64,000 bases of DNA from Kangiellaceae bacterium (GTDB lineage Bacteria; Pseudomonadota; Gammaproteobacteria; Enterobacterales; Kangiellaceae). Position 1 is the first letter of the stretch, and every line of letters begins with the position of its first letter. Of the stretch, positions 6,891 to 43,618 are shown in pieces. Position numbers and translations under genes: made by a program. The notes under the pieces are model-generated. The model saw nothing but the letters and a program-made list of their open reading frames with translations. It was not told where the DNA came from and did no database searches. The DNA is taken from contig JBDVOJ010000112.1 of the NCBI GenBank assembly GCA_039969155.1, forward strand, positions 3,859-67,858, read 5' to 3'.

Positions 6891-9665
6891 ATGAAACGAA
6901 TCACAAAGATAGCAGCAAAATTCGGCTATATCGTGACCCTGTTCACAATATGCACCGCAATGGGATTTACTGGCCTCTATCTTGCGGTTGGACCCGACTT
7001 ACCTGAAGTCGAAACAATTAGAGAAATACGCCTGCAAACACCTATGAGTGTATTTACTAAAGATGGTCAATTAATCAATGAATTTGGTAATGTCCGGCGT
7101 ATACCTATAACTCTAGACCAAGTTCCACAGGATTTCATAAATGCCTTGCTAGCTACAGAAGATGTTCGCTTCTATGAACACACAGGTGTCGATCTGAAAG
7201 GAGTTTTGCGAGCAATTCTAAATCTTGCCACCACAGGAACTAAGAGTCAGGGAGCCAGCACCATCACCATGCTAGTAGCTCGAAACTACTACTTAACTAG
7301 GGAAAAACGATTCTCTCGTAAATTTACTGAGATGTTTGTCGCTTGGAAACTAGAATCCGAACTATCCAAAAATGAAATTTTAGAACTCTTCTTAAACAAA
7401 ATACTGTTTGGACATCGCGCGTTCGGCCTGGGAGCTGCCTCCCAAGTTTACTACGGTAAGCCTTTAAACCAGCTAAACCTTCCTCAATTGGCCACGTTAG
7501 CCGGAATCCCTAATGGCCCTTCTATCTTCAACCCAATTAGTAAACCGAAACTTGCGAAACAGCGTCGTAAACACGTACTAGGTAGGATGTTAGCCGAAGG
7601 ACACATATCTCAGGCGGAATATGAAGCTGCAGATGCTTCTCCAATTCGTACTCAGCGCCACGGCGCTAAAACCACCGTTGACGCGCAATATGTCGCTGAA
7701 ATGGTTCATATGGACATTATTCGACAATATGGACAAGAAGTTGCCCACAGTGATGGACTAAAGGTTTACACCAGCTTAAACCCAACCTTGCAAGAATTTG
7801 CTCAACAAGCTTTGCGTACGAGTTTACTAGAATACGATCGCCGCCACGGTTACCGAGAGGTCGAACAGCACCTTGATATCGCTCAGGTGTCAGAACAAGA
7901 AAGAATTGATTACATCAGTGATTTCACCCAAGTCGGAGCGTTAATCCCTGCTTTGGTTACCCAAACCGAAGGTAATATGGCAAAAATACTCATGCCGGAT
8001 TCAACTAAAGGGGTCGTGTTACTTGAAGACTCCTTGTGGGCTCGTAAATATATTGATGAAAATCATCGAGACACCACTAAATTGGAAGATATTAACCAAA
8101 TTTTTGTTGTTGGAGATGTGATTCGTGTATTACCTACGGAACGTCAGCACCATTTCAACACCGATGCGGAAGATTCCAAAGCTAATGACGCTGAAAAACC
8201 TGAACAAGTCGCCGATTCAGAGAGCCCTTCCGAAGAGTCGGCTGCAAACGCCGAACAATTAGATTTGGCCGAGGAGGCGATCTCTCAAACAACGCCTATC
8301 TATTTGCTTTCCCAAATTCCCGATGTAAATGGCGGTTTTGTAGTACTAAACCCAAATAATGGTGCCGTAGAAGCGCTGGCTGGGGGATTTAATTACAGTA
8401 ACAGCAAATTCAATATGGTAACCCAAGCTCAGCGACAGCCTGGCTCTAACATCAAACCATTTATATACTCTGCGGCTTTAGAAAAAGGCTTTACTGCGGC
8501 TTCACTGATCAATGATTCACCTTACATAGAAAATGATGTCTCCGCGGGAAACTTTTGGCGACCTGAAAACGACAGTGGTAATTATCGAGGTCCAACGCGA
8601 CTAAGAGTCGCATTAAGTTGGTCGATTAATACCGTAGCAATTCGGTTAATAAAGAAGGTAGGTCCCAAATTTGCGAAACAATACTTAGAACAAATTGGAT
8701 TTCCTGGCTCTCGAATGCAGCCTTATCCTTCACTAGCGTTGGGTTCTGCCTCATTCACCCCGCTGGAAGTGGCAACCGGATATTCAACCCTGGCTAACGG
8801 AGGCTATCAGGTCAAGCCTTGGTATATCGAAAGAATTGAAGACACCAATGGTCAAATACTTTTTCAACAAGAACCGATTCAGGTTTGTGAACTGTGTTTG
8901 GAAATGATTGAACAAAAAGAACGACAAGCCATGGAGGAGCAGCTGGAACGAGAGGCCCAGTTAGCGCTAGGAGACTCCCAAGACTCACTACAACTAAATC
9001 AAAGTGATACTGAAGAGACTGAATCTCGCGATTCCGTTAAACAATCGCTTACAACTGAGATTACGACTAATCCAAATGCCGATTTAATTCCAGAGCCTTG
9101 GTTGCCAGTCGCAGAAGAAAAAATTGCGCCGAGAGTGATCGAAGCAAGGAACCGATACATCATAGACGATATGTTAAAAGACGTAATTCATGCTGGAACT
9201 GCTTGGAACTCGTTAAACCGATCCAAAAGCCCACTGCTTAAACGGCGAGATATCGCAGGTAAGACTGGTACCACTAATGATGTTAAAGATGCATGGTTTT
9301 CTGGTTATAACTATAAATACGTAGCTTCTGCCTGGGTTGGTTTTAGAGATCACAGTAAAAAGCTGGGCAAGAGCGAATTCGGTGGACGAGCCGCATTACC
9401 TATCTGGCAAAAGTTTATGGAAAAGGCATTAGATGGTGTGAAGCAGTACAACTTGCCAAGACCAGATGGTATCGTCGAAGTAAAAATAGACCTAACCAAC
9501 GGAAAATTAGCCAGCGCAAATACTCAGAAATCGAATTTTGAAGTCTTTAGGGTGGAAAATACGCCAACAGAATATTCTGAGGCTCCTTCTGAAAATGTTT
9601 TGGATGAGCTTGATGAGGTCTTAGACTCTGAGACTATCGAAGAATCTGATGAAATTGATTTCTAG
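6891..9665 (+). CDS. mrcA: penicillin-binding protein 1A (bifunctional transglycosylase/transpeptidase)
   Basis: 924 aa. Glycosyltransferase motifs are ATEDVRFYEHTGVD and GASTITMLVARN. Transpeptidase motifs are SNIK (SxxK), SWSIN (SxN) and KTGTT. It also carries acidic low-complexity inserts and an acidic tail. Confidence 0.93.
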   Translation: MKRITKIAAKFGYIVTLFTICTAMGFTGLYLAVGPDLPEVETIREIRLQTPMSVFTKDGQLINEFGNVRRIPITLDQVPQDFINALLATEDVRFYEHTGVDLKGVLRAILNLATTGTKSQGASTITMLVARNYYLTREKRFSRKFTEMFVAWKLESELSKNEILELFLNKILFGHRAFGLGAASQVYYGKPLNQLNLPQLATLAGIPNGPSIFNPISKPKLAKQRRKHVLGRMLAEGHISQAEYEAADASPIRTQRHGAKTTVDAQYVAEMVHMDIIRQYGQEVAHSDGLKVYTSLNPTLQEFAQQALRTSLLEYDRRHGYREVEQHLDIAQVSEQERIDYISDFTQVGALIPALVTQTEGNMAKILMPDSTKGVVLLEDSLWARKYIDENHRDTTKLEDINQIFVVGDVIRVLPTERQHHFNTDAEDSKANDAEKPEQVADSESPSEESAANAEQLDLAEEAISQTTPIYLLSQIPDVNGGFVVLNPNNGAVEALAGGFNYSNSKFNMVTQAQRQPGSNIKPFIYSAALEKGFTAASLINDSPYIENDVSAGNFWRPENDSGNYRGPTRLRVALSWSINTVAIRLIKKVGPKFAKQYLEQIGFPGSRMQPYPSLALGSASFTPLEVATGYSTLANGGYQVKPWYIERIEDTNGQILFQQEPIQVCELCLEMIEQKERQAMEEQLEREAQLALGDSQDSLQLNQSDTEETESRDSVKQSLTTEITTNPNADLIPEPWLPVAEEKIAPRVIEARNRYIIDDMLKDVIHAGTAWNSLNRSKSPLLKRRDIAGKTGTTNDVKDAWFSGYNYKYVASAWVGFRDHSKKLGKSEFGGRAALPIWQKFMEKALDGVKQYNLPRPDGIVEVKIDLTNGKLASANTQKSNFEVFRVENTPTEYSEAPSENVLDELDEVLDSETIEESDEIDF

Positions 9666-39628: not shown

Positions 39629-39732
39629 GTAACTTTGACCTCAAATAAGGAATTCATAATTCGTGCTATATCGCCAAACAGTAAAGATTCAAACACGATC
39701 TGGGTAATAGGGCGCTAGTGTAGTGAGCTTAT

Positions 39733-39761
39733 GTGACAGATTTTTTACAGCTAGATGACAT
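39733..39761 (-). promoter_or_regulatory. three phased Pho-box half-sites upstream of the TonB2-type cluster
   Basis: The minus strand reads ATGTCAT-CTAG-CTGTAAA-AAAT-CTGTCAC, three 7-mers at exact 11-bp spacing. Confidence 0.7.
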
Positions 39762-39882
39762 GAAAGTTACTGGTGTAATATCAGTGAGTTAGCTTGAAAT
39801 GTTTCTAAGGTTGAATGAAGCAAAGCATGGTATTAGCTAAGAAGCTGGCGGAACGTATTAGACGTATTTTAATCTCAAATCG

Positions 39883-40935
39883 TATCGATAATGCTAGCAC
39901 TTCGCCTACGCTCAGTGAGCATTTAGTTTTAGAAAAAACCATGCACTTCCCGAAAGCCGGCTGAGCGCAGTCGAAGCCTTACGAACTCCAACTATATCGA
40001 TAATGCAGACACTTCGACTCCGCTCAGTGAACTTAATTTTTTAGAAAAGAACCGCACTCCCACACCAGCCGGCTGAGCGCAGTCGAAGCCTTACGAACTC
40101 CAACTATATCGATAATGTAGACACTTCGACTCCGCTGATTGAGCTTTAGTTTTTGGAGCCCTTTAGTCGTCGGATTTGATCACCATAATGAGATTCATTT
40201 TGACAACTTGCAGCCTTTTTTAGACGATTGAAATCCGAGTTAATGAGTGCCTGTTTCTTTTTCTTACTCCAACCTTGGAGTTGTTTCTCTCGATAAAAAG
40301 CTTCATCTATACGTTCGAATTCTTCTAGATACACAAGAGTGATTGGAAGTCTATGTTTTGTGTAACTTGCACCTAAACCAGACCGGTGTTGCCAGACTCG
40401 TAGGTCTATATTTTTGGTGCTTCCTATATAGTAGCTTTGGTCACTACAAAGAAGTATATAAGTGAATCCTTTCATGATGGTTTCCTTTCATTGCCGAAAA
40501 CGTCCTGTTTAAAGTTAGGATAACACAATAGAGGATTTTACATCTAGGAGGCAACACTTCGACTCCGCTCAGTGAGCATTTAGTTTTAGAAAAAAACCAT
40601 GCACTCCTTGCAAGCCGGCTGAGCGCAGTCGAAGCCTTACGATCTTCAAGCATACTGATAATGCAAACACTTCGACCACGCTCAGTGTGCTTTTAGTTTT
40701 AGAAGAAACCCTGCACTCCTTGCAAGCCGGCTGAGCGCAGTCGAAGCCTTACGATCTCCAACCATACTGATAATGCAAACACTTCGACTACGCTCAGTGT
40801 GCTTTTAGTTTTAGAAAAAACCTGCACTCCTTGCAAGCCGGCTGAGCGCAGTCGAAGCCTTACGATCTTCACCCACACCCATAAGGCTGACATTTCGACT
40901 CCGTAGTTCGACTCCGCTCACCACAGCGCTCAATG
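39883..40935. repeat. array of about 6.5 copies of a 112-113-bp unit, each containing a long imperfect palindrome
   Basis: Left arms (ACTTCGAC...) start at 39899, 40011, 40123, 40556, 40669 and 40781, with a partial one near 40893. Each unit has the form ACACTTCGACTCCGCTCAGTG-(about 45 nt)-GGCTGAGCGCAGTCGAAGCC. There are two linker subfamilies (left of the GIY-YIG gene and right of it). Confidence 0.9.
40146..40475 (-). CDS. small GIY-YIG (URI-domain) nuclease family protein
   Basis: 109 aa with the motifs FTYILLCSDQSYYIGSTKNIDLRVWQHRSG...EKQLQGWSKKKK (GIY...YIG...R...E..K pattern). Confidence 0.85.
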   Translation of the reverse strand: MKGFTYILLCSDQSYYIGSTKNIDLRVWQHRSGLGASYTKHRLPITLVYLEEFERIDEAFYREKQLQGWSKKKKQALINSDFNRLKKAASCQNESHYGDQIRRLKGSKN

Positions 40936-40960
40936 GACCTTTACTTTTTAAAAACAAAAG

Positions 40961-43618
40961 CTAGAAATTTACAGAAACTTGCAGGCTTAATTCAGTTCCA
41001 ACTGTTTCTGTTAGTATATCAACGTCTTCTTGCTCAATCGTTTTATCTTCACCTAACAAATTTTTCACTTGGAATTTTAAAGTGGTATCGTAGGTCGGAT
41101 ACCAAGTGTAAATGAAATCCAATGAATGAAAAGAGTTCTCTTCCGCATCTTCAAAACCGCTCACCCCAGGTACGATTATTCGAGGACCGAACACGTTGTA
41201 AACCAAGGTAGCTGCATGTTCGTTATTTAATGCGTCCCAACCCATTTGTAGGTTAACTACCCACTCTGAATGACCAATTAATCGACGAGTGTTATTGGTA
41301 ATTACCGAAGTAACACTCTGATCAGTATTCAAAGCTTCTTTTAATTGGTCTTCAAATAAACAGTTAGCAGCACCAACAGAAGAACAAATATTCACTTCAG
41401 AATCACTATAAGTAAAGTTACCAGTAACAAAATAGTTGGCCATATCGTCACTGATAAACGATAGATCTTTTAAGAACTCAACTTCTACCCCATATAGCTG
41501 CCCGTCGGTGGCGTTAGCCGTCAACAGTTGAGGTGCCCCTTCAGTGGCACTCGGTAATTCAATTTGCTCAATCGGATTGGTGATATCTTTCCAGAAAAAC
41601 GCTACAGAGACATTTTCACCAGTTTCTAAATACCACTCCCAACGGAAGTCAATGTTGTCGACTGCAGAACTTTTAAGAGACGTTGAACCTCTGACTAAGA
41701 ACTCGGTTAAAGGATCGATATAGAAGCTAGTAGAGATGTCTCGGAAATCTGGACGAATCGTGGTTTCGCTATAATTAAATCGAAATTGCATCTCACTATC
41801 AACAATATAAGTCGCTGCGAGGGAAGGAAACAACTCATCTTCTAGCAACGGTAATTCTGAAATTGAATCAGTATCGCCAGCAAAAAAGTCTGAATGAGGC
41901 TGAAAAGGGATGGAGACTTGTCTAAAATCTTCATATCTAACGCCACCAGTCACTCGCCAGTTTTTGTTCAAATCAAAATCCGCCATAAAGTAATAAGCAT
42001 CAATTAAAGTAGCAGCTTTGTATTTATCACCGTTTGAAGTCGCGTCATCCAAACGAATATTATAATCACTTTGCGACAAATTATTATCTGACATGATTTG
42101 CGAAAAATCGTCGCCAGCTAGATATTGGGATGGGATCGAAAATGTTTGAAGTACGATTCCGATACTTTCAGCATCACGATTTTTTTCTACAAAATCAGCG
42201 CCTGCTTTTAACTCAACACTCCACGAATCGTTATAGATTGGCATGGAAAGATTAAAGCCATAGTTTTCAACATCATCTTCCAAGAATTGAAAACCATAAG
42301 TCGTATTAATATCTCTAGCCAGCTGAGAACTAGAAACACCACCAACGCGGTCGATTCTAAACGTGGTTTCAAATGCTCCAGGAGCATCTCTCTCTGTTTT
42401 ACTTTTAGACACATACCAATCAGCGCCTAGATTAAACCAGTCTGGAAAGTTATGACGACCTTTTAGCTGGTGAGAAATCAATTCCCTTTCTTCATAAAGT
42501 ACATCAACTTTGCGACGAGATTCGTCTGGCTCATTAATGGTGTTGGTGTTTTCGAATTGTCGATTTCTCAATCGATCTTTAGTATCACTAAGAAATATGT
42601 TATTCAGTTCCAAATGATGATCTTGATTAAAGTCATAACCAAGATTTAACATCCCACTCCATTTTATTTGATGTTCGGTAGACTGGCCGTCAGCAAACTC
42701 ATTAATTCTAATTTCGCCACCGGATTTCGCTAGGTTGTTAATATTTCTTTCTTCACTAACATTCCATTCGTTTTTGTAGGACAGGCTCGCCAAAAAGCCA
42801 ATTCGAGAATCACTGCCAAAGTCAATTTTGTCACCATAGGTTAGATCAAATCCGTAGTCAGGGTCGATTGACTGTTCTTGCGCATCAATGTCTCTGTTTA
42901 ATGAGCTAACAATCGCAACAGATTCTTGGGTAGATAATCCATTGAGTCCATCTCCATTAAGAGTAGAACTTAGTAAAGACGATAATTCTCTAGTTCCATC
43001 ATCGCTGCCAAAGTTATCGTCGCTACCACCAGCATACCAAGCAGAGTCATCGTTATCGAAATTAAATCCTAATTTACCACCGACTTTAAAAACTCTTTCG
43101 CTTGGGATGGATTTAGTTCGAATATCAACATTTCCTCCAGCAAAATGAGCGGGAAGGGCAGGTGAATATGATTTTTGTACATTAAGACTTTCGATAATTC
43201 CAGATGGAAATAAATCGAGTGGTAAAACCGAACGAGTCGGATCTGGACTCGGGACGGTAGCACCATTTAACAAGGTGCTAGAATATCGCTCACCTAGTCC
43301 ACGGATGTATATGTATTTTCCATCAACCAGGGTTAAGCCTGTGACACGTCTAAGTGCGGAGGCAGCATCACTATCACCCGTTCGTGAGATTTGTTCCGCA
43401 CCTAGAATATCGGCAACAAAGGCTTGATCTTTTCGTTCGTCTAAAACGGCTTGAGCACTACCCTGTAGGCGGCTTCCAGTAACCACTACTTCTTCTAACT
43501 CAGTTTCTTGATTTTCTTCCTCGGCAACCACCGAAAGCGGTGCGAGACTAGTTAACAGAGCGAAGCTGACCGCCGTCGCTGCTTTTTTAACTAGATATTT
43601 ATTGTGTAATCTATTCAT
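40961..43618 (-). CDS. TonB-dependent outer-membrane receptor
   Basis: 885 aa with a signal peptide, a TonB box/plug (EEVVVTGSRLQG...), a long beta-barrel and a terminal aromatic residue (...SLQVSVNF). Confidence 0.92.
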   Translation of the reverse strand: MNRLHNKYLVKKAATAVSFALLTSLAPLSVVAEEENQETELEEVVVTGSRLQGSAQAVLDERKDQAFVADILGAEQISRTGDSDAASALRRVTGLTLVDGKYIYIRGLGERYSSTLLNGATVPSPDPTRSVLPLDLFPSGIIESLNVQKSYSPALPAHFAGGNVDIRTKSIPSERVFKVGGKLGFNFDNDDSAWYAGGSDDNFGSDDGTRELSSLLSSTLNGDGLNGLSTQESVAIVSSLNRDIDAQEQSIDPDYGFDLTYGDKIDFGSDSRIGFLASLSYKNEWNVSEERNINNLAKSGGEIRINEFADGQSTEHQIKWSGMLNLGYDFNQDHHLELNNIFLSDTKDRLRNRQFENTNTINEPDESRRKVDVLYEERELISHQLKGRHNFPDWFNLGADWYVSKSKTERDAPGAFETTFRIDRVGGVSSSQLARDINTTYGFQFLEDDVENYGFNLSMPIYNDSWSVELKAGADFVEKNRDAESIGIVLQTFSIPSQYLAGDDFSQIMSDNNLSQSDYNIRLDDATSNGDKYKAATLIDAYYFMADFDLNKNWRVTGGVRYEDFRQVSIPFQPHSDFFAGDTDSISELPLLEDELFPSLAATYIVDSEMQFRFNYSETTIRPDFRDISTSFYIDPLTEFLVRGSTSLKSSAVDNIDFRWEWYLETGENVSVAFFWKDITNPIEQIELPSATEGAPQLLTANATDGQLYGVEVEFLKDLSFISDDMANYFVTGNFTYSDSEVNICSSVGAANCLFEDQLKEALNTDQSVTSVITNNTRRLIGHSEWVVNLQMGWDALNNEHAATLVYNVFGPRIIVPGVSGFEDAEENSFHSLDFIYTWYPTYDTTLKFQVKNLLGEDKTIEQEDVDILTETVGTELSLQVSVNF

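Follow-up and report, generated by a model that had tools for sequence, protein, structure and literature searches.

Repetitive extragenic palindromes (REPs) are species-specific, and the enzyme that accompanies them in REPtrons, RAYT, is an IS200/IS605-like Y1 HUH tyrosine transposase. Hairpin repeats also accompany a different enzyme in the Ssn family (Chenal et al., Nat Commun 2025; PMC11893778). SsnA of Neisseria meningitidis is a GIY-YIG protein of 94 aa (CDD cd10448) that binds the hairpin repeat NTS (CGTCATTCCCGCGMAVGCGGGAATCYRG) only as single-stranded DNA (ssDNA), with its cut upstream of the repeat. It cuts neither the reverse strand nor duplex DNA nor RNA, and RNA is not bound either; three SsnA homologues behaved in the same way biochemically (PMC11893778). 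The SRM repeat lies nearby in 71% of ssnA homologues, and the authors, who showed that the Neisseria system modulates natural transformation, liken it to insertion sequences and to REPs and bacterial interspersed mosaic elements (PMC11893778). The main text of that paper mentions neither Bacteroidota nor UPF0213 (PMC11893778). Here we describe a locus in a 64-kb stretch of DNA from a Kangiellaceae bacterium (the window, whose positions are used throughout), where a gene for a small GIY-YIG nuclease is flanked by two arrays with a period of 112 bp, detected with Tandem Repeats Finder. We consider it probable (about 0.7) that the window protein is an endonuclease of the Ssn type, directed to ssDNA by a hairpin and encoded within arrays of that cognate hairpin.

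A mini-hairpin with covarying closing pairs

Each arm of the window repeats is in itself a complete mini-hairpin, closed by pairs of its own (GGC..GCC or CAC..GTG). This mini-hairpin has 2-4 variable closing bp around the conserved core C-T-GAGCGNAGTCGA-A-G (core CTGAGCGNAGTCGAAG), so that the variable pairs are followed by C-G, T-A and a conserved 12-nt interior. Among 458 distinct copies of the core, all from outside the window's lineage, the closing positions were complementary far more often than with shuffled partners: 91% versus 41% at -1/+1, 90% versus 45% at -2/+2 and 59% versus 32% at -3/+3. The closing pairs interchange freely among GC, CG and AT, and G-T pairs, at 30, are much commoner than A-C pairs (about 5 at most), which argues that one strand folds, and suggests the purine-rich one. 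These covarying pairs identify each window arm as an autonomous mini-hairpin. The original prediction had taken a long arm-loop-arm palindrome as the functional repeat, and in this it was mistaken, the conserved unit being the mini-hairpin of about 20 nt. The complete 112-bp unit, loop and linker included, is restricted to the window's lineage, where the hairpin orientation alternates inside the unit; the mini-hairpin is the part conserved elsewhere. Its copies are mostly intergenic (36% within long open reading frames [ORFs], against a background coverage of 85%).

Other identities for the repeats were also considered. ARAGORN found no tRNA or tmRNA from which the TTCGACTCC-like arm could originate, and readings as an integron attC site or a CRISPR were rejected, as the whole 112-bp unit repeats and lacks R'/R'' core sites. 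Rfam gave no match on the locus (E up to 10) or on 15 repeat-rich loci (gathering thresholds). Literature searches with the motif string, with GIY-YIG plus RAYT and with GIY-YIG plus palindromic or intergenic repeats returned nothing relevant, or papers on fungal mitogenomes only.

The hairpin takes more elaborate forms in some genomes. In Sphingomonas (L004, L030, L038, L091, L105, L106 and L109), convergent pairs CCGTTCG-GGCTGAGCGCAGTCGAAGCC ... CCCTTCGACTTCGCTCAGGGCGAACGG stand at the gene ends, sometimes in tandem and with closing pairs that differ between the halves. At about 6480-6545 of L011, a 25-nt hairpin, tgtcaGGCTGAGCGCAGTCGAAGCC, lies between the halves of another palindromic element (gtcatgctgaac ... 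ttgtttcagcatc) shaped like a canonical SRM (GTCA plus hairpin), so that one hairpin element is nested in another.

The hairpin follows the nuclease family

An alignment of 34 homologues of the window protein served to retrieve 80 metagenome loci. In 64 of these the core, with up to 3 mismatches, lay no more than 400 bp from the gene, bearing out the anatomy described by the original prediction, that of a small stand-alone GIY-YIG gene inside hairpin-repeat arrays, arranged like REP/RAYT but with another enzyme. That prediction would have fallen if homologous genes elsewhere never had matching palindromes, and at these loci they do. At distances up to 400 bp from the gene, the core had a density of 4.47 per kb, compared with 0.105 per kb beyond, a 43-fold difference. 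A generalised pattern (stem, CTGAG, 4-7 nt, CGAAG, complementary stem) was found near the gene in 70 of the 80 loci, and those without it carried visibly related hairpin variants.

The usual layout has a sense hairpin 20-110 nt before the start codon and an antisense hairpin right after the stop codon. Accordingly, the nearest upstream hairpin was in sense orientation in 27 loci and antisense in 6, while the nearest downstream one was antisense in 31 and sense in 14. One gene (L178) is bracketed by a perfect 30-nt inverted repeat. The usual layout is also shown by an annotated gene of Sphingomonas parapaucimobilis. Across unrelated neighbouring genes, what the hairpin follows is the nuclease family.

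The exact 20-mer GGCTGAGCGCAGTCGAAGCC was also searched in one genome per species, a collection in which, by our own estimate from its size, about one chance match is expected. It was found in at least 120 genome stretches from many phyla; the taxa among the matches listed include Flavobacteriia and other Bacteroidota, Sphingomonas, cyanobacteria, Treponema, Gordonia, Zixibacteria and Ignavibacteria, besides others. In 15 of these at least 120 listed stretches a GIY-YIG homologue begins 20-60 nt downstream of the 20-mer in the same orientation, and in some of the 15 a second, inverted copy follows the gene.

Two further features of such loci were noted. Positions 3899-4836 of L073 (Mariniflexile aquimaris) hold a tandem pair of GIY-YIG genes with a period of 459 bp, with two hairpins ahead of each gene and a fifth closing the array. 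In addition, the C-terminal tails FDSAQP.., LRLRS.. and GFGSAQPP.. of many database ORFs of this protein family are read-through translations of the downstream hairpin (window 40146-40170; P0048, P0057, P0062 and P0111; L128, L139, L142, L162 and others). The last 8 or so codons of the window ORF likewise read into a truncated repeat unit, and this read-through explains its length of 109 aa instead of about 100 aa.

The protein and its relation to SsnA

The window protein is a single-domain GIY-YIG protein of less than 150 aa, with PF01541 (residues 2-74) as its only Pfam domain. Residues Y6, Y16, R26, H30 and E63, invariant in the 34 homologues, are the catalytic Tyr, Tyr, Arg, His and Glu of the GIY-YIG superfamily. 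The AlphaFold2 model (pLDDT 88.9) shows one compact domain followed by a low-confidence tail (about 55 for residues 91-109). Foldseek placed 1zg2 first, then 1ywl and then the nuclease domain of Slx1 (root mean square deviation of 1.8 A over 72 residues), I-TevI being a weak match (E 0.49). The protein had no match among PADLOC defence families or in NCBIfam.

N. meningitidis SsnA was taken as P0244. The published criterion for Ssn homology is a blastp E<1e-10 with 75% cover, per genome (PMC11893778). Against SsnA, the window protein gave E=2e-11 in a single pairwise BLASTP comparison, a value that would probably exceed 1e-10 in a proteome-sized search. Compared as families with hhalign, the two matched with 98.5% probability (E=4e-15); the window protein and SsnA are homologous. 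The UPF0213 protein BH0048 scored 76.5 bits with the window family and 21 bits with the SsnA family, and single-sequence searches agreed; the window protein itself scored 50.8 bits with 1zg2, also of UPF0213. The two BH0048 scores suggest that the window clade may fall in cd10456 or cd10449, not in cd10448.

A gene of the SsnA type (P0341; 3001-3312 of L225-L229) was seen within a type I restriction-modification operon. The start of this gene and the stop of hsdM overlap, and NTS-like repeats, hsdS, a DUF3800 gene and hsdR come after it.

Tail classes and loop classes

In the window clade, the first 85 or so residues are nearly constant, and the last 10-15 are of three types, each found with its own hairpin loop. 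Tails of the type ..ECxNxSH occurred with loop CGNAGY in 50 cases, with GNNCT in 0 and with CYTGT in 1. Tails of the type ..LPELAxAYRDL went with GNNCT (9 cases, and 0 with each of the other loops), and those of the type ..LSKNY with CYTGT (4 cases, and again 0 with the others). The window falls in the first class, with tail ..AASCQNESH.. and loop CGNAGT. This pattern, drawn from sequences, is the one expected were the tail to read the loop, and it suggests such a pairing.

A broader proposal, which we put forward tentatively, is that a second, UPF0213/Slx1-like branch of small GIY-YIG proteins would consist of hairpin-directed ssDNA nucleases in which an exchangeable C-terminal tail of 10-15 residues reads the apical loop, 5-6 nt long, of a cross-phylum hairpin (ECxNxSH/CGNAGY, LPELAxAYRDL/GNNCT and LSKNY/CYTGT).

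Empty sites and array dynamics

The operon that contains the window locus is also present in relatives L207, L208 and L210 (DUF3450 proteins 85%, 78% and 75% identical), where the corresponding spacer has neither the GIY-YIG gene nor the hairpin. In blastn comparisons of the window with L207 and L208, homology to L207 ends at window position 40986, at the 3' end of the TonB-dependent receptor (TBDR) gene, and restarts at 39792; the spacer thus shrinks from about 1.19 kb in the window to about 190 bp in L207. As these empty orthologous sites lack both gene and repeats, the two came in jointly, adding about 1 kb of DNA.

Relatives that bear the gene at the same site (L001, L002, L123, L124 and L127; protein identity 86-100%) vary in the number of repeat units, the downstream array of L001 having one unit fewer than that of the window. 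Since entry, then, the arrays have changed copy number in unit-length steps. A comparable variation was noted in the lineage of P0031, a single lineage at species level (L214, L218 and L221; about 509-570, after the gene), where the spacer varies from sample to sample by steps of 19 nt, with 1-4 copies of gtggtgtCTGAGCGGAGCCG.

Anatomy of the locus

The positions of the features are listed in Table 1. The right arm, GCCGGCTGAGCGCAGTCGAAGCC, is present in 5 copies, all identical, and the left arm, CTTCGACTCCGCTCAGTG, in 6 copies with 0-2 changes each, while 0.00-0.02 arm matches are expected in shuffled sequence. The arms pair over 16 bp with one mismatch, are separated by 41 nt and are followed by a linker of about 31 nt. 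Where the original prediction counted six and a half units, the two arrays add up to about 5.5, with a degenerate tail reaching about 40935, which is close. Its two linker subfamilies, left and right of the gene, are present as described, and the alignment likewise shows unit 3 cut off at the gene end after the left arm and about 25 nt of loop. The variant hairpin of the edge unit recurs at array edges in L123 and L124. A simple scan of the spacer between the start codon and the nearest upstream hairpin revealed no sigma-70-like site.

Table 1. Positions of the gene, arrays, hairpins and flanking features in the window
Feature	Window position	Size, copies or strand	Details
Array downstream of the gene	39883-40154	2.4 copies, 85% matches	U1, U2 and truncated U3; Tandem Repeats Finder and alignment
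Array upstream of the gene	40553-40900	Period 112-113; 3.1 copies, 90% matches	U4-U6; Tandem Repeats Finder and repeat families D1-D4
Degenerate edge unit	40901-40935		- strand; variant hairpin GTGAGCGGAGTCGAAC; core at 40906-40921, 2 mismatches in the core scan
GIY-YIG nuclease gene	40146-40475	109 aa	ORF; Ssn-like/UPF0213-like; Pfam PF01541, E=2e-17
Spacer between start codon and nearest upstream hairpin	40476-40552	77 nt	AGGAAA 7 nt before ATG
Whole element	39793-40985	~1.19 kb	From the TBDR stop to the conserved DUF3450 promoter region
Hairpin GGCTGAGCGCAGTCGAAGCC	39959-39978; identical at 40071-40090, 40617-40636, 40729-40748, 40840-40859	Sense on +	
Hairpin CACTGAGCGGAGTCGAAGTG	40555-40574	Sense on - (gene strand)	Copy nearest the gene start
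Further CACTGAGCGGAGTCGAAGTG hairpin copies	39898-39917, 40010-40029, 40668-40687, 40780-40799; degenerate at 40122-40141		
TBDR gene	40961-43618	- strand	
Conserved stretch with 15-nt inverted pair	39716-39792		L123 5729-5870; L124 5958-6099; L207 4334-4410

The neighbouring genes are all on the - strand, in the order TBDR, the element, DUF3450, ExbB, ExbB, ExbD and TonB, and the DUF3450 protein has its closest named relatives in Aliikangiella (68% identity). Terminator-like hairpins with T-runs were seen within the loops of the upstream units (40839-40819 and 40726-40710) on the - strand, the one transcribed in the operon, and could stop transcription arriving from the TBDR gene. Upstream of DUF3450 lies a conserved stretch with a 15-nt inverted pair, GTAACTTTCATGTCA / TGAGGTCAAAGTTAC, whose arms are 112 nt apart. 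Since the stretch is kept in an empty-site relative, it is part of the control region of the operon itself and lies outside the element.

Weighing the interpretation

By analogy with SsnA, the window protein would bind the folded sense-strand hairpin of ssDNA exposed in replication, transformation or conjugation, and would cut that strand a few nucleotides 5' of the hairpin, leaving duplex DNA and RNA uncut. The variable C-terminal tail (..AASCQNESH..) probably reads the apical loop (CGNAGT), and gene and hairpins would have entered the spacer between the TBDR and DUF3450 genes together, in about 1 kb of DNA. In the cell, the protein might limit or shape the recombination of incoming ssDNA. 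The original prediction, whose central interpretation is supported, had the nuclease recognising or propagating the hairpin element. Recognition is probable, given the association and the biochemistry of SsnA, but propagation finds no backing in the single stable locus of each lineage examined.

Several observations weigh against the assignment to an Ssn-type nuclease. The hairpin was counted within the 64-kb window, and there it has zero copies outside the locus. Identity to N. meningitidis SsnA is no more than 33% (82 of 94 residues aligned), and the protein is nearer to UPF0213. Nearest-neighbour folding prefers the long arm-to-arm hairpin (z of -3.2 to -3.5) and not the mini-hairpin (z of about -0.2); as the isolated mini-hairpin folds no better than shuffled sequence, the case for it is the comparative one made by covariation. 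A chi-square for the pairing of tails with loops yields no real probability, because as few as three evolutionary events may lie behind it. Finally, the published SRM pattern (HGTCWYN(0-2)YYVSBRHN(0-5)WNVSBRGN(0-2)RNCYNB within 500 bp, on both sides of the gene) hits neither the window arrays nor any of the 80 related loci, so that membership of Ssn as defined is unproven. Its one match elsewhere in the window, at 8951, is unrelated.

Around genes of the SsnA type the same pattern gave 8 and 6 matches, and the core CTGAGCGNAGTCGAAG gave none. Given this reciprocal specificity, two protein clades pair with two hairpin classes. A co-varying gene-repeat association in other bacteria, for which the original prediction had suggested looking, does exist, since enzyme clade and hairpin sequence change together.

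The main rival explanation, which we regard as unlikely, although it is compatible with an ssDNA nuclease and the two are not mutually exclusive, is that the locus is an active selfish mobile element of the insertion sequence or homing kind. The nuclease would make breaks from which host repair copies the element, and the solitary hairpins and 112-bp units would be non-autonomous derivatives. The extra DNA of about 1 kb relative to the empty sites fits such an element, as do the sense hairpin-gene-antisense hairpin layout, the 30-nt inverted repeat of L178, the solitary hairpins scattered between genes in many phyla and the nesting seen in L011. Proteins 60-70% identical across phyla point in the same direction, and a resemblance to insertion sequences was noted for Ssn itself (PMC11893778). 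However, the locus is single, stable and syntenic in every lineage examined, and that of the window keeps it at 86% protein identity. In a test for multi-locus mobility, P0031 was found in 24 contigs with a single genomic context, and the flavobacterial loci L139, L162, L168 and L189 have common flanks. Plasmids and phages seldom carry the family (5 plasmid records and 13 partial phage matches), and no target-site duplication was seen. The chemistry also speaks against mobility, since GIY-YIG enzymes hydrolyse DNA and we know of no strand-transfer chemistry among them.

Far less probable is a role of the repeats as RNA, in which they would stabilise the TonB operon transcript as REPs do, or attenuate or terminate it, while the nuclease gene would be no more than a passenger. 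The flanking genes and the GIY-YIG gene do share the - strand, which also carries the terminator-like hairpins with T-runs of the upstream-unit loops, and on it the left-arm variants retain arm-to-arm pairing through G-U. Yet both hairpin orientations are equally frequent relative to the gene (34/34 upstream and 47/45 downstream), no Rfam family matches, and the association holds with the nuclease family across unrelated neighbouring genes. SsnA, moreover, does not bind RNA (PMC11893778).

The landing of a GIY-YIG gene in an unrelated, pre-existing tandem repeat, which the truncation of unit 3 at the gene end would resemble, is very improbable, because the array too is missing from the empty sites, 80 independent loci show a 43-fold enrichment of the hairpin, and motif class tracks protein class.

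The hairpin-directed ssDNA nuclease therefore remains the reading we prefer. Should the broader proposal of a second, UPF0213/Slx1-like branch also be correct, the long-uncharacterised proteins of the UPF0213 type gain a function, and the many intergenic 'CTGAGC..GTCGAAG' palindromes of bacteria are explained, together with the spurious ORF tails to which they give rise. Nucleases that act site-specifically and only on ssDNA are sought after as tools, the first having been reported in 2025. Within this one genome the significance is modest: one stable locus, with strain-variable arrays, between a TBDR gene and the complex that energises it.

Comparison with known systems

Free-standing homing endonucleases such as I-TevI and the Seg proteins share the GIY-YIG catalytic domain, and the window gene looks like an insertion, in an intergenic spacer. 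GIY-YIG homing endonucleases join that domain to a sequence-specific DNA-binding domain and stand in group I introns or phages. The window protein has no extra DNA-binding domain, and it is encoded at a stable syntenic locus in a chromosomal TonB operon. TIGR01453 reached 16.8 bits against a cut-off of 56, and this on a homologue only.

By sequence and fold, the best matches of the window protein are UPF0213 (BH0048, EF2693; E. coli YhbQ-type) and the Slx1 nuclease domain. For UPF0213, the literature searches made here gave no repeat association and no sequence-specific activity. Slx1, whose nuclease activity is structure-selective and directed at branched DNA and stem-loops, requires Slx4 and bears a RING/PHD domain.

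With REP/RAYT, the window locus shares a single enzyme gene between inverted short hairpins that also occur dispersed and clustered in intergenic DNA, and probably the recognition of folded ssDNA. The enzyme is, however, a hydrolytic GIY-YIG nuclease and not a Y1 transposase of the HUH class. The other genes of the locus (TBDR, DUF3450, ExbB/ExbD and TonB) include no RAYT, and, unlike REPs, hairpins of the window type are conserved across phyla.

The closest likeness is to Ssn, whose general description, 20-50-nt hairpin-forming repeats flanking the gene, fits the window locus. Both have a single-domain GIY-YIG protein of about 100 aa and hairpin repeats of 20-30 nt that are clustered on both sides of the gene and also solitary in intergenic DNA. 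In both, the hairpin is conserved and oriented, with an apex of the GCG-NAG type, and the flavobacterial copies share the 5' GTCA. The repeats around the gene are spaced in tandem in both, at 68 bp in Neisseria and 112 bp here. They differ in that the window core CTGAGCGNAGTCGAAG has a non-Watson-Crick interior, whereas the TTCCCGC/GCGGGAA stem of Ssn is fully paired.

As Ssn and SRM were published in 2025, the arrangement is not new in kind. The published definition covers one protein clade (cd10448) and one degenerate motif; the window locus and its at least 80 relatives suggest that the Ssn logic reaches a neighbouring clade, whose hairpin is invisible to that pattern, and that tail-loop pairing offers a simple, testable rule. 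What is new here is this neighbouring enzyme clade, a distinct cross-phylum hairpin missed by the published definition and a candidate rule linking tail and loop.

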